A stretch of 64,000 nt of DNA, from positions 15,734 through 79,733 of IMG/VR virus record IMGVR_UViG_3300032265_003789; one strand, given 5' to 3'. Positions 3,689-47,166 of this stretch are shown here, in pieces. Source of the DNA: a virus. Within the stretch, counting starts at the first letter, position 1, and the number at the start of each line of letters is the position of its first letter. The notes beneath the pieces were generated by a model. The model was not told the DNA's origin. It worked only from the letters and a program-made list of their open reading frames with translations, and did no database searches. A program made the translations under genes and the position numbers.

Positions 3689-5530
3689 ATGCCTAGACGT
3701 TCCGTGCGCACGGAAGTTAGGGAAGAACTAAATTTCCCTAATGACCAGGTAAAAATTGTTAATACAAACGATTTAGCCGATTCAATTAACAGCGTAAAAG
3801 CAGTTAAGCAGCAACAAGAAGAAGTCATCCCATCTGCACCTGCAATTAGCAACGCTGACCTTATCAAGCAGGCTATTGATGCTGCTACAGCAATTCAAGG
3901 AGAAAAGCTAGCAGTTGAGCTCAAAGCCAAAGAACTAGAAATTGAAAAAACCCTACAAGAGCGCGACTTGGCTCATCAGCAAGAGCTCGAAAGCTACAAG
4001 GCGACCCTTGAAGCTTTGACTGCTAAAACCAGCGAACAAATCGAAAGTATTCAATCAGAACTTAAACAAACCAATACAAAGCTTGAAGATGCCAAAGTTG
4101 CTGAAAAGCGCATGGCTGAAGTATTCAAACTACATGGTAAAGCAAACCCAGTGGTACAAACTAAGACTCCCGCTTTGAACGTTCTGACCTCCACTACTTC
4201 TGATCGCATGGTTGGCGCCTTTGCTGAATTCCAGGCGATTAAACAGAAATCCCAGCAAGTCCTTAAGCAGTCCTCCAAAGGTACTGCTTACGTGATGGGT
4301 GACTTTAGAGAAGCTGATCGCTTTGTTACTGAAAACCGCAAAGCGGTAATCAAAGACCTTGAAGCTTTTGCTAAGAAAAACGGCATGCTCCAAGGGCTCA
4401 ACCCAACTCCAGAAGCTATCAAGCAGGCAAGCACTCAGATTACTGATGTGCCCGGTGGCTTCCTTGATACTCTAAGCTCTATTGTTCGTACCACTCACAG
4501 ACCCGGCTTTGTCTTCTGGCAATTTGCCCAGACTGAGTTCAACTACCTCAAAGGTGAAGGCTCCAACGTATTAGTTCAGCGCGCTGCTTACGCTGCTGCT
4601 TCTAACAACCCAGCCGATTGGGAATTAAGTGGCGGTGGTAGCTTTGTTGCAATTGACAATACCCTACAGCAGATCACTACTGGTACTGTTCCTATCACCC
4701 TAAAAGAATACGGACTAGGTAAATCTGGCACAACCAATCAGCCAATCTCCCTACCTAGCTTTGTCATGGCGTACTCCATGATTGATCTAGTATCTGTTCT
4801 AGAGCGCAACTTAGGACAAAACTACGCTTACTTTGAAGACCTCAAAATCAGATCTCTCTATGCTGGTACTAGCGTTAGGCTCTATAACAATAACAGCTCT
4901 GTTGTCTCAGCAGGCTCTGGCGTATCCGCAGGTACAGCAACTAATCCTTCTGGAGTAATCACCAAAGAATTCTTGATTAACCTTTACGCCTATATGTTAG
5001 GTCGTCAGGTTGAGCGCTTTGCTGATGGCTGTTACGCGCTGGTACTGCATCCTACTGCTGCTAGCCAATTCTTAAATTCCTTGGCCGCGCTTTACAGGTT
5101 TGTTACCAAAGACGATATTGAAGCGCTAACCACAATTCTCAACCCCGGTGTAATTCAACCAGAAAACGGTTCTAGAGTTTCTGGCTATATCGGTACTTAC
5201 TACAACTTCCATATCTTCCAATCCAACTCTTTTAGTGTTGGCGCGGCCGCAACTGAAGGAGTACAAACTGAAACCATTGGATCTACCTCTGGCGTTCTCA
5301 CTCGCACTAGCTACGCATTTGGTAATGCGGCGGTTGGTCGCGGTGTTGGTACTCCAATGGAAATCAGACAGAACGAAATCACTAACTATCAACGTTTGAA
5401 CTCCTATATCTGGAGATCTGAAGAAGGCTTTGCCCCTCTTGACGTTGATCCTACTGGTTACTCTGATGCTTCTGCTGTTCCTCAACAGCTTCGAGTATTC
5501 CAAATTCGCTCTACTGATATCGCGGTATAA
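3689..5530 (+). CDS. Major capsid protein with N-terminal coiled-coil scaffold domain
   Basis: 613 aa; ~150-aa E/K-rich coiled coil followed by an N4-gp56/HK97-like capsid region (TITLKEYG-like, YALVLHP, GYIGTYYNFHIFQSN, FGNAAVGRG); codon usage suggests high expression. Confidence 0.8.
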   Translation: MPRRSVRTEVREELNFPNDQVKIVNTNDLADSINSVKAVKQQQEEVIPSAPAISNADLIKQAIDAATAIQGEKLAVELKAKELEIEKTLQERDLAHQQELESYKATLEALTAKTSEQIESIQSELKQTNTKLEDAKVAEKRMAEVFKLHGKANPVVQTKTPALNVLTSTTSDRMVGAFAEFQAIKQKSQQVLKQSSKGTAYVMGDFREADRFVTENRKAVIKDLEAFAKKNGMLQGLNPTPEAIKQASTQITDVPGGFLDTLSSIVRTTHRPGFVFWQFAQTEFNYLKGEGSNVLVQRAAYAAASNNPADWELSGGGSFVAIDNTLQQITTGTVPITLKEYGLGKSGTTNQPISLPSFVMAYSMIDLVSVLERNLGQNYAYFEDLKIRSLYAGTSVRLYNNNSSVVSAGSGVSAGTATNPSGVITKEFLINLYAYMLGRQVERFADGCYALVLHPTAASQFLNSLAALYRFVTKDDIEALTTILNPGVIQPENGSRVSGYIGTYYNFHIFQSNSFSVGAAATEGVQTETIGSTSGVLTRTSYAFGNAAVGRGVGTPMEIRQNEITNYQRLNSYIWRSEEGFAPLDVDPTGYSDASAVPQQLRVFQIRSTDIAV

Positions 5531-36130: not shown

Positions 36131-36360
36131 CTCCTTATCGGGCTAATATATATATTATCGGATATATCCCTTAAGAGATCAATAGGTATTTATACCTAAT
36201 TTTGGGTATTTTTTTATAAACTTTCTTATATATTTCTAGATATTTTGAGATTTTACTTATATGTGTCGGTAATCGTATTGATAAACGTACGGATACCCGA
36301 AAAATATATAAGATATTTTGTTGATTTTGCCAGAAATTATCAGGAATTTGTATATATACT
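36131..36360 (-). repeat. Inverted copy of the 2560-2790 element including promoter/operator
   Basis: Minus strand AAATTAGGTATAAATACCTA-TTGATC-N17-GATAAT-ATATATATTAGCCCGATAAGGAG. Confidence 0.85.
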
Positions 36361-36570
36361 GTACGGGTATTTGTACGGGTTATCGTACCGGTAATCGTAC
36401 CGACAAGGGAATATATAAGATATTCTGTCGATAGCAGCCGGATTTATCAGGTTTCCGTATGGATATTGTATTGATAATCGTATCGAGTGTCGTACCGGGT
36501 ATCGTATTGAAATAGGATATATAAGATATTCTGTCGCCAGCAGCCGAATTCATCAGGTTTTTGTATATTT
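36300..36570. repeat. Three ~50-bp motifs at 107-108-bp period with ATCGTAC/ATCGTAT-rich linkers
   Basis: ATATATAAGATATT(C/T)TGT(C/T)G...ATCAGG...GTAT near 36304, 36411 and 36518. Confidence 0.75.
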
Positions 36571-36728: not shown

Positions 36729-37439
36729 TTAGTTCAGTTGAGCAAAAACACTGTGTATTGCATTTTCTAGTTCGTGACTGTCCTCGTAGCAGTTGATCGG
36801 TCGCATTTGCCCGTTGCAATATCTTTCCTCTCTGGTATATGGAAGTCCAGTGTCTTTTACTAATTTGCCAATCCGAACTCTTTGACTGTGATCCAATTTG
36901 TAGCCTAGCTCTTCTGCTTTTTGCACTACTCCTACTAATCTAGGTGCGGTGGCTATTTGCCCAAGGATTTTAGTAGTAATCATTTCATCCCCAAGGCGAT
37001 CTAGGAAAGCCTGCTTGAGGGCTGCTGGCATGGCAGTAGTGGTTATTACAGCCAGCGATTTGGCATAATCCACTACGTCTCTTACCGGTGGCAGCTGCCT
37101 AGCGGGTTGACGCTCAACTTGATAGCCTCCAGTTTGACGGATTGAGGGGAGCACTACTGCGGTAATCCATTTCTTAAAGACTTTGGCTTCGGGTTTGCGA
37201 GATTTAAGGACAAGGCTGTACATGCCGGATTCGGAAATTATAGATATTTCTTGTGAGCCGCCAAGGGTGTCGGCATTAACGACCCCCTTTTCATCCTCAT
37301 CTAATTTGTTGATTGCATCTCTAGGATTAGCTATTTCTAAAGCATTGCATACATCCTTGGCAACAAACCAAGGTTGTCCTTCAATAGACACTGTGCGAAC
37401 TTGATTGGAGTTAAAATCAAAAGCTGTAAGATTGCTCAT
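36729..37439 (-). CDS. BRO-N domain antirepressor-like protein
   Basis: FDFNSNQVR..PWFVAKDVC..ISESGMYSLVLKSRKPEAKVFKKWI..VLPSIRQTG. Confidence 0.92.
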   Translation of the reverse strand: MSNLTAFDFNSNQVRTVSIEGQPWFVAKDVCNALEIANPRDAINKLDEDEKGVVNADTLGGSQEISIISESGMYSLVLKSRKPEAKVFKKWITAVVLPSIRQTGGYQVERQPARQLPPVRDVVDYAKSLAVITTTAMPAALKQAFLDRLGDEMITTKILGQIATAPRLVGVVQKAEELGYKLDHSQRVRIGKLVKDTGLPYTREERYCNGQMRPINCYEDSHELENAIHSVFAQLN

Positions 37440-37511
37440 ATATGGTTGTCGATATGATTGATAACCTCAATAATATCAAGACCTAAAAACCCCAATTTTT
37501 ACCAGAAATTA
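37414..37511 (+). repeat. 98-bp direct repeat, copy 1
   Basis: 97/98 identical to 38887-38984. Confidence 0.92.
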
Positions 37512-38791
37512 TGAAGATCACCAAAATAAATTTATCAAATTTTCGAGGAGTTGAATCTCTATCTTTAAAGCTTCATGAAAGATTAAATGTATTATTTGGG
37601 ATGAATGGTACCGGAAAATCAACAATTTTCTATGCTGTTGCAATAATGCTTTCATGGACTATCCAAAGAATAAAATCTATCCAATCTAATGGAAAGGATA
37701 TTCCACAACTTGATATTAAAAATGGATCTCATAGATCATCAATAGAGATATTTTGTAGTGATAACAATAGGGAAATTTTTTGGAGGCGCACTAACCATTT
37801 AGAAGGATATGGTTTGTCAGAAGAGCGCAGTGATTTTACCCATTTAAACGAATATGTAAAACAAATTCAAGATGAAATAGCTGCACAAAAAGAAAAAATT
37901 AATTTACCTTTATTTGTTTATTATCCAGTTAATCGAGCAGTTTTAGATATTCCTTTACGAATTAAGTCTAAACATCAATTTGATTTACTTGCTGCTTATG
38001 AAGATGCATTAACAAGTGGAGCTAATTTTCGTACTTTTTTTGAATGGTTTAGAGACAGAGAGGATCGTGAAAATCAAAACAGAAAATATATAGATGCTTT
38101 AATAAAGCCAGAGGATTATGTTTTTCCCGATCCTCAGCTTGAAGCAGTACGTCAAGCATTGCAAGAATTTTTACCTGAATTTAAAAATATAAATGTAATA
38201 AGAAATAATCCTCCTAGAATGGAAGTAACAAAAAATGGGGAAATATTGCGAATCGATCAACTTTCTGATGGAGAAAAATGCTTGATTGCTATGATAAGTG
38301 ATTTAGCTCGTAGATTAGCTATTGCCAATCCAAAACGAGACAATCCATTAGAAGGCGAAGGAATCGTATTAATTGATGAAATAGAGCTACATCTTCATCC
38401 AAAATGGCAAAGAATGATCGTTCCTAAATTATTAGAAGTATTTCCTAATTGTCAATTTATTATTTCAACTCATTCTCCAAACGTTATCACACATGTTAAA
38501 CCTGAAAGTCTTTATTTACTTGAACAATCTCAAGGAAAGATAAACGTTAGTAAACCCCAAGAATCTTATGGAAAGACTGTAGAAAGAATTCTTGAAGATC
38601 TTATGGGATTAACCACAACAAGACCTGATGAAGTAAATGTTAAACTTCGTGAAATATATGACAAAATTCAACAAGGCAATCTTGATGAAGCTAAGCAAAT
38701 GATAGACTCTATGAGAAAAATAATTGCCGAAGACCCTGAATTAGTTAAAGCAGAAGTTTTGATTAAGCGTAAAAAAATAATTGGCAAATGA
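37511..38791 (+). CDS. ABC/AAA_21 ATPase, Septu/retron-effector PtuA-like
   Basis: Walker A GMNGTGKST, LSDGEK signature, VLIDEIELHLHP, STHSP; overlaps an HNH start (ATGA); more AT-rich than flanks. Confidence 0.85.
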   Translation: MKITKINLSNFRGVESLSLKLHERLNVLFGMNGTGKSTIFYAVAIMLSWTIQRIKSIQSNGKDIPQLDIKNGSHRSSIEIFCSDNNREIFWRRTNHLEGYGLSEERSDFTHLNEYVKQIQDEIAAQKEKINLPLFVYYPVNRAVLDIPLRIKSKHQFDLLAAYEDALTSGANFRTFFEWFRDREDRENQNRKYIDALIKPEDYVFPDPQLEAVRQALQEFLPEFKNINVIRNNPPRMEVTKNGEILRIDQLSDGEKCLIAMISDLARRLAIANPKRDNPLEGEGIVLIDEIELHLHPKWQRMIVPKLLEVFPNCQFIISTHSPNVITHVKPESLYLLEQSQGKINVSKPQESYGKTVERILEDLMGLTTTRPDEVNVKLREIYDKIQQGNLDEAKQMIDSMRKIIAEDPELVKAEVLIKRKKIIGK

Positions 38792-38895
38792 AGCATATTA
38801 GAAAAAACAAGAACCGGCATCTTTTTCAAACTGGAAATCTCAAGCTAACGATGATTGGAGACCAGCCTATGAAAATTTTCAAGGTGAAATCAAAA
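38788..38895 (+). pseudogene. Frameshifted and truncated PtuB/TIGR02646-like HNH nuclease
   Basis: MKHIRK-(frameshift in A run 38802-38807)-QEPASFSNWKSQANDDWRPAYENFQGEIK, then cut by the repeat. Confidence 0.7.
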
Positions 38896-38984
38896 GCTGT
38901 AAGATTGCTCATATATGGTTGTCGGTATGATTGATAACCTCAATAATATCAAGACCTAAAAACCCCAATTTTTACCAGAAATTA
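38887..38984 (+). repeat. 98-bp direct repeat, copy 2
   Basis: Matches 37414-37511; ends in the terminase stop codon. Confidence 0.92.
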
Positions 38985-40421
38985 CACAACAACTTGAGTT
39001 ATTGACAGGGCAAAAGCTAAGCTCATAATGATATCATCGTGCCTGCCAGCGATGGCTTGAAGCTTCCCATCGGTATTTCTAAAGCTTAGGAATTCTTCTA
39101 TCACAACCCGGTCATTGGGGATTATAAGTTGCGTTTTCTCCAGTATTAGCAGTAGCCTGTTGATAAACACTGGCTTGGATACAGCAGTGGTTTTTACTGG
39201 TTCAATATTGGTATTAATATTAGATTTTGTAAGCTGTTCAAAGTAGATTTGACCGCCACTATTGACCTCAATCCCCACTGCTACGGGGTTATATTTTTGT
39301 ATTAATTCTGTTAGCTGATAAATATGATAATCGTTAGTTTGCTTGCGTTTGCGATACATATCCACCAGATACAATTTATCCCCAGTGGATTTTAGGACAG
39401 TTGCCACGCAATAATCTAAGCCCAACAAACTAGTATCAATTCCGATATAGTAGGACGCGTCGGGGTCTACTTCTTTTTCCCAGTTACCTGTATTGACAGT
39501 GCGTATTAAGTCGTTACTAAATATGATAGATTCTGCGCTGGTAAACGACAAATTATATTCCTGCTCGATTACTTCCATCGGAGCGCCATACTGCTTTTGT
39601 AAATCCTCCAGATAAGTAGCTTTTTTGAGCTTAAATTTAGGATGATCTAACCAGTGAAGGACAAATTTGCACCAATTGTTTTTATCAGTCCAGTATTGGC
39701 AGGGTACCACTTCCTCAGCTTTGATTTTCTCGCAAAGCTCCAATATGTCCACGTTATCGTTATTGTTAGCCAGTTTATCCCAATACCATCCCGACTGGCC
39801 GTTAGGGGTAGAGAGGATGATGATTTTAGCCCTATCGCCCATCATCGTGGTACAGGGGATGGACGCTTTGTAGATTTCCTCTATTTCCTCCACAAATGCC
39901 GATTCATCAAATAAAATGTCGGATACAGATTCTAGTCCCCTGGCGCCATTGGGAGTAGAGTTTCTAAAAAGGATTCTGCCACCGTTTTTAAATTCAATAT
40001 CGGTCAGTGAATCGGTTTTAGTTTCGCAGTACTGATACAAAAACTCAATAGTCCGCCTAAGTCTTTTAGCGATATTACTGGTATCAGATTGGGATTTGGA
40101 AAATACTACTGCTAAATATCCAGGGTTACTTAAAGCCTTGAATAAAAAGTAATTGATAATCGTTTCAGTGATTCCTAGCTGCCGAGTTTTGGTAATTACT
40201 GTAGTAGGATGAGTCTCAATTTGCTGTATTAACCTGACTTGATACTCATAGGGATTAAAAAATATAATCCCATCGCCAGAACGAATCTTGCAAATCTTGG
40301 CAAACTCTAGCCAAGTTGTGGGAATAGGTAGCAGGTGAGATTTGTTGGCTTGCGAGGGACTATTACGGTAAGTCCGCTCTAGATAGACCCGTTGTCCCCA
40401 GCTCTTAAGTGTTAGTTTCAC
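38982..40421 (-). CDS. terL: Terminase large subunit
   Basis: KTRQLGITE Walker A variant, ILFDESAF Walker B, LSTPNG, IGID, HDDIIMSLA nuclease motif. Confidence 0.9.
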   Translation of the reverse strand: MKLTLKSWGQRVYLERTYRNSPSQANKSHLLPIPTTWLEFAKICKIRSGDGIIFFNPYEYQVRLIQQIETHPTTVITKTRQLGITETIINYFLFKALSNPGYLAVVFSKSQSDTSNIAKRLRRTIEFLYQYCETKTDSLTDIEFKNGGRILFRNSTPNGARGLESVSDILFDESAFVEEIEEIYKASIPCTTMMGDRAKIIILSTPNGQSGWYWDKLANNNDNVDILELCEKIKAEEVVPCQYWTDKNNWCKFVLHWLDHPKFKLKKATYLEDLQKQYGAPMEVIEQEYNLSFTSAESIIFSNDLIRTVNTGNWEKEVDPDASYYIGIDTSLLGLDYCVATVLKSTGDKLYLVDMYRKRKQTNDYHIYQLTELIQKYNPVAVGIEVNSGGQIYFEQLTKSNINTNIEPVKTTAVSKPVFINRLLLILEKTQLIIPNDRVVIEEFLSFRNTDGKLQAIAGRHDDIIMSLAFALSITQVVV

Positions 40422-41091: not shown

Positions 41092-41988
41092 ATGAACATC
41101 AACGACTGTCACAAGATTGACCGTTACGGATACACTAGCTATTGGTATATCAAGCCCAATGCTCCAGAGAGGGTATTCTTAAAAGAAAAAATTGACGACA
41201 GAGAGGACTTCCACATTGTTGGAGAAATTGACGGATATTATGAATATCAAATTACCAATGATTTCATAAACGCCGTTGGCGCATCTGGTGAGTACCTGAT
41301 GACTGCTAATGGGGCTTTAGGATTTAATAGCATCTGGGATTACGATAACAGCAAAGAATTGTATTGGTGTGTTGACCTTTGTGAAAGTCCATATATTGTG
41401 ATAAACAAAGTAGAACTAAAGCCCGAGCCATGGTGGGACGCTCAAGGCTACTACCAAGGACAGTGGATTGCGGCATTTTGCCGTGAGTGGGATTTAGAGG
41501 ATGATGAAGAGGAAGATGATATAAAACTAGGAGAAGATATTGTGGAAATGGAAATTGTAAAAACCGAGGAAATGCGTGGCGGCGACAGCTTGTTTTGGAA
41601 TTGGGAGATTGGTAAAAAACCACGGTTGTTTTCGCTAACTCAACTCACCTATCCTTCTGAAATTGATTGGGAATTTTCCACAATCCGCGAAGGAAGAGGT
41701 CAAGAACAAAAAATTTATAAAGCATTTGAATATGCTGTAACTTCAGAAATGTTAACTGCCTACGCAAGGGTAGATAAAAAGGTCACTACTCCTGCGGGTG
41801 ACTTAACCTTTTATGTTGTTCGAGACAACGGGTCTAGATCTTTAGAAGATACCAACTTCTTCTACTGGGCAGTTGACCCAGATGGAAATGTATTGGGAAC
41901 TTATTCCCGTTGGATAGGCGATAATGAAGACTTAAATTGGCGCGCCAGAATCACAAAACAATTCTGCTCAGAACCGGTTAATGTATAA
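41092..41988 (+). CDS. Acidic Trp-rich early protein with two related domains
   Basis: EY.(I/V)T..T..G.L.F..YW.VD occurs twice. Confidence 0.7.
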   Translation: MNINDCHKIDRYGYTSYWYIKPNAPERVFLKEKIDDREDFHIVGEIDGYYEYQITNDFINAVGASGEYLMTANGALGFNSIWDYDNSKELYWCVDLCESPYIVINKVELKPEPWWDAQGYYQGQWIAAFCREWDLEDDEEEDDIKLGEDIVEMEIVKTEEMRGGDSLFWNWEIGKKPRLFSLTQLTYPSEIDWEFSTIREGRGQEQKIYKAFEYAVTSEMLTAYARVDKKVTTPAGDLTFYVVRDNGSRSLEDTNFFYWAVDPDGNVLGTYSRWIGDNEDLNWRARITKQFCSEPVNV

Positions 41989-42027
41989 TTAATCTGTTTT
42001 CAAAATATGTTTATGCCTCAATTTTTT

Positions 42028-42649
42028 TGGGGTTTTTTGCTGTTTAAGCGTATTGATAAAATTAAACAGAATCAATCAAATTTGTGTAAATAAAATTCAT
42101 AAAATGCAAGTCACCGTCTCCATGAAAACAAATGAATGGATTAAAATGCAAAAATCCGATAGGATTTGGTCTTGGGTAATTGGTAGCCAACCACGTTTGT
42201 ACACATTAAATAAAATTAATTACCCAAGACAAGAATTAGAGCCGATAGGGTTTGGCGTAATACAAATTGGAGATTTGCTTTATACGGCATTCAAATATGA
42301 AGTTACTCCAGAAATATTAAATCTTTATGCAATTCTAAAAAGCGTTGTCAACACACTAAAAGGAGATGTCAAATTCTATACCACGTTACCAGAAGACCAC
42401 AAAACATCCTTGGTGGGAAACAGAACATTTTATTGGTGGGCAGTCAATCCAATGGGTGAGGTTTTAGATGTGTGTTTAGTTTGTGTTTACGATACTGAAG
42501 ATAGAATCCGCTGGTGCAATCAAGTAATTCAAAACTTTGTGCATAATTAAAATTTATTGCTAACAAAATATACTTACAACCCCAGTTTTCTGGGGTTTTT
42601 TGCTGTTTAAGCGTATTGATAAAATTAAACAGAATCAATCAAATTTGTG
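42028..42649 (+). repeat. 59-bp perfect direct repeat (42028-42086 and 42591-42649)
   Basis: TGGGGTTTTTTGCTGTTTAAGCGTATTGATAAAATTAAACAGAATCAATCAAATTTGTG; internal CTGTTTAA/TTAAACAG inverted repeat. Confidence 0.9.
42104..42550 (+). CDS. Paralogue of the C-terminal domain of 41092-41988
   Basis: WSWVIGSQPRLYTL vs WNWEIGKKPRLFSL; WAVNPMGEVL vs WAVDPDGNVL. Confidence 0.7.
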   Translation: MQVTVSMKTNEWIKMQKSDRIWSWVIGSQPRLYTLNKINYPRQELEPIGFGVIQIGDLLYTAFKYEVTPEILNLYAILKSVVNTLKGDVKFYTTLPEDHKTSLVGNRTFYWWAVNPMGEVLDVCLVCVYDTEDRIRWCNQVIQNFVHN

Positions 42650-45783: not shown

Positions 45784-45999
45784 CTACAGCTTATCTAAAG
45801 CCTCCAGCCATTTTTCTATATTTATCTGAAGCTTTTTATCACTGATTTGTCGCCAATGCTCACCGCGCTTGAAGGGGCTTTGTCCTGGAAAGTTTTTGGC
45901 TTTACGAATTTGCAAGTAGAATAGATGCTGCTTGATCCCTGATAATTGCGCAGCAGTCGCCACGTCGACCCACTGTACTTGTATTGTAAAACTTTTCAT
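45784..45999 (-). CDS. Excisionase-like HTH protein
   Basis: WVDVATAAQLSGI..FKRGEHWR; divergent from the integrase. Confidence 0.65.
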   Translation of the reverse strand: MKSFTIQVQWVDVATAAQLSGIKQHLFYLQIRKAKNFPGQSPFKRGEHWRQISDKKLQINIEKWLEALDKL

Positions 46000-46056
46000 T
46001 TATTGGTGTATTTAATTGATATCCTAAAAAATATCACAATCAAAAAACCGCAAAAA

Positions 46057-47166
46057 ATGGACAAAAAGCTGACAGAGGAATTGACAAAAATTAACCTGCG
46101 ATTAAGCAAAATCAAATTAAGAATTAAAAATAATCGAGTATATCTGAGGGGCACTTTACCGCCTAAACCCAATGAGGGAGTATTACCTCGACAATATGAG
46201 CTAAGCACTGGTTTAGCTGCCAACCCACAGGGATTAAAAATAGCTCTAGCTAGAGCTCAAGAGATTGAATCAAGATTAGTGCTCAATCAATTTAGCTGGG
46301 GTGATTACCTGCAAAACGGCATCCTAGGCACTAAGCCGGCGTCACAGTGGATTGCAGAATTTGAAGAGCATTACTGGCTTACTCACCAGAAAACCACCAA
46401 AAGAAAATATGTTTTTGATGTGCATTGGGGCAACGCATTTAGTCGACTTGCTCCAGATGAGCCACTAAGCGAAAAAGCCATAATTCCAATTATTAGCGCG
46501 TATTCGGTAGATAGTCCCCGTCGCGATATGCTGCTAAATTACTATATTCAATTGTTCAAATTTGCTGGCATAGCAAACACTTTACACCAATTAAAAGTAA
46601 GTTGGAAAGTGAAAATCAAACGAGAACTTCCCAGTGATTTAGAACTAATTGATTTTGTCGATTCAGTCAATCCGGATTACAGGTGGATTTTTGGCACACT
46701 TGCAGCCTATGGTTTACGCAGTCATGAGTTAATAGAATTAGATCTTTCCAGAGCGCATATAGAGCCTTATGTTGTGAAGGTAAGCGACAATACAAAAACT
46801 GGCGCTCGGTTAGTTTATCCTGTACCTGGGGATTGGGTAAATCGCTGGAAATTATACGAAAAGCATGACCCGATATACAAAACACGATTTATTAACTACG
46901 ATTACGGCACTAGAATATACAAACTCTTTCTAAGAGAAACAAAACGACTTAAAATAAGGACAATGAGTCCATATCATTTTAGAGACGCGTATGCAGTGCG
47001 TTGCTCTTTATTGGGAGTAGATGCCGCTATTGCCTCAAAGTGGATGGGGCACAGCTTAAAAATTCACTGGGAATCCTATTTAAAATTCTTTGATGAAAAT
47101 CATCATAATCAAGCTTGGATGGAGATGAACAAAAATATTAAATCAAAATCTAAAAAGGGGCTTTAA
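46057..47166 (+). CDS. int: Tyrosine integrase, cyanobacterial XisA/XisC-like
   Basis: YLRGTLPPKP..FSW N-terminus; YGLRSHE, TKTGAR, YHFRDAYAVR, MGHS..H..Y catalytic residues. Confidence 0.88.
   Translation: MDKKLTEELTKINLRLSKIKLRIKNNRVYLRGTLPPKPNEGVLPRQYELSTGLAANPQGLKIALARAQEIESRLVLNQFSWGDYLQNGILGTKPASQWIAEFEEHYWLTHQKTTKRKYVFDVHWGNAFSRLAPDEPLSEKAIIPIISAYSVDSPRRDMLLNYYIQLFKFAGIANTLHQLKVSWKVKIKRELPSDLELIDFVDSVNPDYRWIFGTLAAYGLRSHELIELDLSRAHIEPYVVKVSDNTKTGARLVYPVPGDWVNRWKLYEKHDPIYKTRFINYDYGTRIYKLFLRETKRLKIRTMSPYHFRDAYAVRCSLLGVDAAIASKWMGHSLKIHWESYLKFFDENHHNQAWMEMNKNIKSKSKKGL

Follow-up and report, generated by a model that had tools for sequence, protein, structure and literature searches.

Apparent capture of a Septu ptuA gene by a cyanophage through two microhomology joints

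The 64,000-nucleotide stretch of viral DNA analyzed here (hereafter the window) comprises bases 15734–79733 of the 79.7-kb IMG/VR virus record IMGVR_UViG_3300032265_003789, the completeness of which is estimated at 96%. Between its anti-repressor gene (bro) and its terminase large subunit gene (terL), it carries an intact gene for PtuA, the ATPase of the anti-phage defence system Septu, followed by a short remnant of the gene for the partner nuclease, PtuB. The two lie on an insert that is bordered by two copies of a 98-bp direct repeat, is missing from the same site in a closely related phage, and closely resembles intact ptuA–ptuB pairs on metagenomic contigs. These observations strongly support the capture of a host gene by illegitimate, microhomology-mediated recombination, the route of which we infer from the joints. 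With a probability of about 0.6, we regard the phage ptuA as a recent and tolerated passenger, that is, a newly acquired moron presumably lacking a function, rather than as a working device.

The insert, its repeats and its joints

The donor-only DNA spans 1375 bp on the plus strand (37512–38886), with a GC content of 0.315 as compared to 0.403 in the window. The ptuA open reading frame (ORF; 37511–38791, plus strand) encodes an ABC/SMC-type ATPase of 426 amino acids, which matches the PADLOC model PDLC00271 with an E-value of 1.6e-156. Residues 1–424 align to positions 1–417 of the 421 positions of this model, and the protein is therefore full length. It also matches the Pfam families AAA_15, AAA_21, AAA_23 and SMC_N. 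The best PADLOC matches were the Septu PtuA and PtuB models, and the weaker ones included the ATPase and HNH models of retron I-A. The motifs of PtuA are complete, with a Walker A motif (GMNGTGKST), a signature motif (LSDGEK), a Walker B motif (VLIDEIE) and an H-loop (STHSP). In an alignment of nine alleles, these motif columns are invariant, and the phage copy retains every invariant column.

The insert is flanked by the direct repeat R. The left copy (37414–37511) is composed of the start of bro and the bro–terL intergenic segment; it holds the ATG and the first 8–9 codons of bro, and its final base is also the first base of the ptuA ATG. The last three bases of the right copy (38887–38984) are the terL stop codon. 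A base-by-base check showed that the two copies are identical at 97 of the 98 positions, the sole mismatch being an A at 37452 in the left copy and a G at 38925 in the right copy. The repeat search itself had returned 103 nt at 97% identity, compared with 98 bp for the strict repeat.

A single copy of R is found in the related phage IMGVR_UViG_3300010334_006366 (L004, also designated G404; 45.8 kb), whose TerL is 99% identical to that of the window. In L004, terL, one R and bro are contiguous, and the site is thus empty. The right copy of R in the window is identical to this single copy, whereas the A at 37452 in the left copy differs from both. The window and L004 are collinear over 20 kb at 87–95% identity, and the clean gap between them corresponds to the insert plus one R. 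Among the IMG/VR records searched with a 50-nt core of R, L004 was the only other one to contain it, and R does not occur in the donor-type loci described below. Everything that an initial annotation, made from the letters of the window, had described as seen was confirmed. The intact 426-residue ATPase that begins at the insert start is a full-length PtuA, the 98-bp duplication was reproduced exactly with the same coordinates, and an empty-site allele, proposed as a check, exists in a relative. The precise excision of the insert through the repeats, also suggested there, is possible in principle by recombination.

The joints were placed by a three-way alignment, together with a base-by-base check. 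At the left joint, the 6-nt microhomology AAATTA (37506–37511) is common to the end of the phage terL, including its stop codon, and to the donor through the A of the ptuA ATG. Here, the phage reads CCAGAAATTA followed by CACAAC, and the donor reads ATATAAATTA followed by TGAAAATC. At the right joint, the 9-nt microhomology AAATCAAAA (38887–38895) is common to codons 34–36 of the donor ptuB and to codons 7–9 of the phage bro, which is encoded on the other strand; the donor reads CAAGGTGAAATCAAAA followed by AAGATG, and the phage reads GGAGTTAAAATCAAAA followed by GCTGTAAG. Donor DNA begins precisely with the ptuA start codon and stops at ptuB codon 34–36, and the point at which phage sequence takes over again is 98 bp to the left of the point at which it broke off. 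With re-entry 98 bp upstream of exit on the phage genome, the 98-bp segment was duplicated.

This arrangement would be produced by the following course of events. By illegitimate recombination, a probably temperate cyanophage would have acquired a 1.38-kb piece of a stand-alone Septu operon from a cyanobacterium, with one joint formed at AAATTA, from the end of terL to the start of ptuA, and the other at AAATCAAAA, from ptuB codon 34–36 to bro codons 7–9. The joints could have arisen by a template switch during replication, or one host fragment could have become joined to two phage genomes that were sisters or concatemeric. Owing to the duplication, bro still has its upstream region and terL its stop codon; both genes are whole, which explains why this recombinant was viable. 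The outcome is an intact ptuA without its nuclease partner, lying antisense between two phage genes.

Phage morons, a concept of Hendrix and Juhala, the formation of lambda transducing phages at short homologies and microhomology-mediated template switching are known processes. Like these, the present locus has a single foreign gene of deviating base composition (GC 0.315 in 0.403), inserted between genes that are adjacent in L004 and joined to them at microhomologies. It differs from them in its 98-bp target duplication, its recognizable truncated neighbour gene and the presence of near-identical donor-type loci in public data. In T4-type phages, the regulatory PeSL cassettes flank gene insertions (PMC2839356), and these resemble the present case in that direct repeats of intergenic phage sequence border the inserted gene. 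However, the PeSL cassettes are pre-existing and dispersed and mediate homologous exchange, whereas the relative has just one R, and it was the event itself that gave rise to the second copy here.

A transposon or insertion sequence was also considered as the origin of the insert and was rejected: the insert contains no transposase and has no terminal inverted repeats, and 98 bp is far beyond the length of fixed target duplications.

Donor-type loci and the ptuB remnant

The closest PtuA proteins in a collection of 5.8 billion proteins are 94–97% identical to the phage protein and come from short contigs. Beyond this set, the identity falls to 83%, 77% and then about 60–66% across many phyla. 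A metagenome scan yielded two donor-type loci, L007 (on a 5-kb contig) and L008 (within the 170-kb contig Ga0194055_10000003), with PtuA 95% identical to that of the phage by tblastn. Both contain intact, overlapping ptuA–ptuB pairs, with PtuB proteins of 214 and 216 amino acids, respectively (PADLOC E-values of 1e-80 to 1e-84), and their ptuA genes are 98.0% (L007) and 96.7% (L008) identical to the window at the DNA level. In L008, an urtA-type gene (encoding a periplasmic binding protein of the Pfam family Peripla_BP_5) and a molybdopterin oxidoreductase gene lie upstream of the pair, and hicA–hicB and a Uma2 nuclease gene lie downstream. The urtA-type gene is 73–79% identical to matches in 131 of the 401 sampled cyanobacterial genomes, and L008, as judged from its gene content, is a piece of a cyanobacterial chromosome. 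In the representative genomes of GTDB, the PtuA identity is 66% or less, and the donor species is therefore not among them. The donor of the insert was presumably the host of the phage, and the capture is presumably recent. The initial annotation had likewise proposed the recent acquisition of half of a cellular PtuA–PtuB operon and had named cyanobacteria as the place to seek the donor; L007 and L008, with 97–98% DNA identity, support the former, and the cyanobacterial origin of L008 agrees with the latter.

The donor-type ptuA is preceded by a 27-codon stub resembling the N-terminus of the HicB antitoxin, and the stop codon of this stub lies four bases before the ptuA ATG (the stub and its associated genes are located at 4880–5000 and 8367–9862 in L008, and at 1–100 in L007). 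The stub, hicA–hicB and the Uma2 gene seem to constitute a small toxin–antitoxin and defence islet beside nitrogen-assimilation genes.

In the nine-allele alignment, the phage PtuA has no private residue, as each of its residues is also present in some cellular allele. Its N-terminal variants K20, E23, R24, F40 and Q156 are those of the allele P0004. The window branch of ptuA carries seven synonymous and five non-synonymous changes. A case for selection in the phage, based on the ratio of non-synonymous to synonymous substitution rates (dN/dS), was rejected, because all 12 of these changes also occur in cellular copies. Being shared with cellular alleles, the changes either predate the capture or reflect mosaicism among the alleles, and are silent on selection in the phage. 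A separate polymorphism among the near-identical ptuA alleles is a 21-nt in-frame tandem duplication, which adds the seven residues KPEDYLT after residue 198. It is found in L007 (at about 690–710 of the locus, within ptuA), P0004 and P0007, and is absent from the phage copy.

The remnant of ptuB, the HNH nuclease gene, comprises the first 33–36 of 214 codons (38788 to about 38886–38895, plus strand). Its ATG (38788) is overlapped by the last four bases of ptuA, and its frame breaks after six codons, where a run of six A residues (38802–38807) replaces the seven of L007, corresponding to a 1-nt deletion at codon 6–7. In the other frame, the remnant is 96.8% identical to residues 6–36 of the L007 PtuB by tblastn, and apart from the A-run deletion, it differs from L007 by one other substitution. 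The alignment with the intact L007 ptuB thus confirmed that the HNH partner is cut at about 33 codons and carries a 1-nt frameshift, as noted at the outset. No other ptuB was found in the 79.7-kb phage record. A Septu system has an intact PtuB HNH gene next to ptuA, and what adjoins the phage ptuA encodes residues 1–36 only, with a frameshift. As the right joint itself truncates ptuB at codon 33–36, ptuB was never captured whole, and the earlier proposal that the phage had kept only the ATPase, as a decoy or for superinfection exclusion, is not supported.

In cells, the pairing of the two genes is nearly universal, with ptuB directly following ptuA in 139 of the 140 loci with enough sequence. 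The single exception is L111 (JAJXWR010000032.1, a metagenome-assembled genome from Proteobacteria), where the DNA immediately following ptuA yielded no ptuB; this ptuA may lack a partner naturally or have a diverged one. Among viruses, the IMG/VR protein search returned no relative of the phage PtuA, a megablast search of 50,697 phage records with the insert region returned nothing, and the insert junctions were found in no other IMG/VR record searched. PtuA-like genes are present in 9 of the 50,697 phage records and are distant, with 36% identity or less. One of these nine, the filamentous Vibrio phage PQ189325, was inspected and carries a complete retron I-A, including PtuB.

Septu type I, consisting of a stand-alone PtuA ATPase and a PtuB HNH nuclease, was reportedly described by Doron et al. 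in 2018. A structure of Septu is credited to Li et al. 2024, as cited in PMC12640716. The phage gene resembles type I in being a full-length, motif-complete PtuA, and L007 and L008 have the canonical overlapping ptuA–ptuB arrangement. Unlike type I, the phage nuclease is cut to 33–36 frameshifted codons, and the phage locus is not a Septu system. Retron type I-A (Retron-Eco7/Ec78 and Eco4), which combines a reverse transcriptase (RT) and an RNA that is non-coding with PtuA and PtuB, has an effector of the same family. However, no RT adjoins ptuA here, whereas the system is complete in phage PQ189325. Upstream of ptuA in L008 lie the molybdopterin oxidoreductase gene and the HicB-like stub, while the upstream DNA in the phage is R, and no RT was seen beside ptuA in the neighbourhoods of L008 and the phage, with no RT-specific profile search run. 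Since the donor operon has no adjacent RT, it is a stand-alone Septu operon and not a retron I-A. A retron origin was therefore rejected, and the retron Ec78-type label given in the initial annotation does not apply.

The insert and its duplication might alternatively be artefacts, derived from chimeric molecules (for example, by template switching in whole-genome amplification) or from mis-assembly. Only one record, assembled from a metagenome, is known to show the arrangement, and amplification chimeras also form at short microhomologies, a feature that the two joints share. On the other hand, overlaps of 6 and 9 nt are probably too short to mislead a k-mer assembler, and random chimeras, being individually rare, should not win the assembly consensus. 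Such an artefact would further need two joints in the same orientation that restore a collinear phage genome and leave both neighbouring genes intact. In addition, a one-base difference separates the repeat copies and the ptuB remnant has a 1-nt deletion of its own, which looks like evolution after the event. Together, these points favor a real molecule that has undergone replication since then. In our view, an artefactual origin is very improbable.

Possible functions of the phage ptuA

Published work has shown the dependence of the two Septu proteins on each other. PtuAB is toxic, whereas neither PtuA alone nor PtuB alone is toxic (PMC12640716). Both PtuA and PtuB are required for defence and toxicity (PMC12640716, PMC13096335), defence requires both catalytic activities (PMC13096335, PMC12673091), and PtuA alone does not hydrolyze ATP in vitro (PMC12673091). 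An orphan PtuA is therefore expected to be inert by itself, and since PtuA needs PtuB for any known activity, the phage ptuA would be a passenger. The capture of the whole ptuAB, an abortive-infection toxin, would probably harm the phage, which would explain the truncated capture that is observed.

Upstream of ptuA, the promoter-like sequence TTGTCG-N17-AATAAT (37446–37474, plus strand) matches 9 of 12 consensus positions. The initial annotation had called it a plausible promoter; the sequence is indeed present, but it is no better than those in shuffled DNA, as the region contains 12 such 9/12 sites and the shuffles contain 9.3 ± 3.5. A match at chance frequency provides no evidence of a promoter. 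Classical morons bring their own promoter and terminator, whereas the phage ptuA has this chance-level site, and no plus-strand terminator was found after the gene. The capture left behind the DNA that natively lies upstream of ptuA, and the gene is antisense to the flanking, co-oriented phage genes terL and bro. No tRNA gene, for tRNA-Tyr or any other tRNA, was found in the phage record, and the known anti-Septu route through tRNA-Tyr is therefore absent.

A different role is conceivable if the host itself has Septu. The phage copy of PtuA would then co-assemble with the host PtuA and PtuB, upset the stoichiometry of the complex and thereby blunt abortive infection, either because PtuB would be spread thinly over numerous PtuA oligomers or because it would be kept in an ATP-bound, inhibited state. 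In agreement with such an anti-Septu device, the ORF was captured in full, start codon included, and encodes all of the catalytic motifs, and the 94–97% identity of PtuA to cellular alleles makes co-assembly plausible. The phage could also afford to carry the gene, as PtuA alone is harmless to the cell (PMC12640716). The reported properties of PtuA–PtuB complexes fit as well: the C-terminal domain of PtuA binds PtuB, in complexes of 6:2 (E. coli Septu), 4:2 and 2:1, and ATP-bound PtuA inhibits the nuclease (PMC12640716, PMC12673091). However, the phage protein is a wild-type PtuA without a private substitution, and extra copies would amount to more functional PtuA, not to a poison subunit. Moreover, ptuA has no credible promoter or ribosome-binding site and lies antisense to the terL–bro transcription unit. 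Nor does it recur among phages, as would be expected of an anti-defence gene: the junctions are unique among the IMG/VR records searched, and of the nine distant PtuA-like genes in the 50,697 phage records, the one examined belongs to a complete retron I-A. In the published work consulted, the measures found against Septu and retron-Eco7 are tRNA-Tyr, Rad and gene amplification. Taken together, an anti-Septu device seems unlikely, and its specific form, in which an unmodified copy of a host PtuA acts as a stoichiometric factor that strands limiting PtuB in incomplete or ATP-inhibited complexes, is slightly more doubtful still.

Lysogenic conversion would assign ptuA the opposite effect, with the prophage gene supplying or boosting the ATPase in a lysogen that has ptuAB or only ptuB, thus strengthening Septu and excluding superinfecting phages. 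An integrase-like ORF of 406 amino acids (45946–47166) matches the PHROG integrase family phrog_1 with an E-value of 1e-11, and together with the anti-repressor gene, it suggests that the phage may be temperate. Furthermore, ptuA runs in the direction opposite to that of the late genes and is lower in GC than the phage, as is often the case for morons. However, the match of this ORF to the Pfam tyrosine integrase family (PF00589, 19 bits) is below the cut-off, and a host with ptuB also possesses its own ptuA (139 of 140 loci), which would make an extra copy redundant. The absence of promoter and terminator evidence and the restriction of the junctions to this record among those searched also argue against lysogenic conversion, which we consider highly unlikely. 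The initial annotation had offered a dominant-negative decoy or superinfection exclusion as the purpose of the gene; both are unsupported, given the lack of private PtuA residues, the chance-level promoter and the unique junctions.

We therefore favor the interpretation of ptuA as a tolerated passenger, although several points weigh against it. The left joint falls exactly at the start codon, giving a complete ORF with no 5′ excess. A random break would rarely produce such a joint, which might be a sign that an expressible gene was selected for. The insert has also lasted through the frameshift in the ptuB remnant and one substitution in the repeat, despite its possible removal through the repeats. 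The donor and the phage host are placed to the phylum only (Cyanobacteria), and both the joints and the apparent silence of the gene are read from assembled sequence. The probability that remains beyond the passenger, the anti-Septu device, lysogenic conversion and the artefact falls to anything else.

Phage setting and implications

The bro gene (36729–37439, minus strand) encodes a Bro-N protein of the anti-repressor (Ant) type (Pfam Bro-N, E-value of 1.1e-26; PHROG anti-repressor Ant, E-value of 3e-53), and the product of terL (38982–40421, minus strand) matches the Pfam families Terminase_6N and Terminase_6C. The window TerL is 42% identical to that of Nodularia phages and 34% identical to that of Cylindrospermopsis phages. 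It is also 41–48% identical to TerL in 3 of the 401 sampled cyanobacterial genomes, two of which are also among the best matches of the urtA-type gene of L008. As judged by TerL, the phage is a cyanophage.

Other features of the region were noted in the comparison with L004. Just downstream of bro, an AT-rich, non-coding tandem array of three units of about 107 bp (36262–36566) is also present in L004, and may function as an origin of the iteron type, as a partition site or in regulation. Within bro, about 110 nt of the Bro-N domain (approximately 37230–37330) are strongly diverged from L004, while the rest of the gene is 95–99% identical; this stretch is a short mosaic segment of the anti-repressor that arose by recombination. 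Beyond terL, a segment of about 1.02 kb (41103–42122) is missing from L004. The 298-residue ORF in this segment (41092–41988) has no Pfam or PHROG match and resembles a tandem paralogue of the next gene, which starts at about 42123. In L004, the starts of both paralogues are fused at a short common motif, ATGAA..TG, and the difference thus appears to reflect the gain or loss of a paralogue between close phages.

The kind of event described here, moron acquisition by illegitimate recombination, is known, and this case is unusually complete. Evidence that a phage has taken up a host gene usually comes from events that are old and eroded. In the present case, the filled recipient, the empty-site relative and the donor-type loci (97–98% DNA identity) are all public, and both joints are readable to the base, providing a clean natural example of the birth of a moron, in which a 98-bp target duplication accompanies two microhomology joints. 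The case also suggests a filter on what phages take up from defence islands, namely the inert half of a toxic pair and not the pair. If surplus PtuA does nothing, the case is a record of genes passing neutrally from defence islands to phages. If surplus wild-type PtuA weakens Septu, the overdose of one subunit would represent a new anti-defence principle, and should the phage gene truly be an anti-Septu factor, a two-component defence disarmed by its own wild-type part would have been caught at the point of acquisition.

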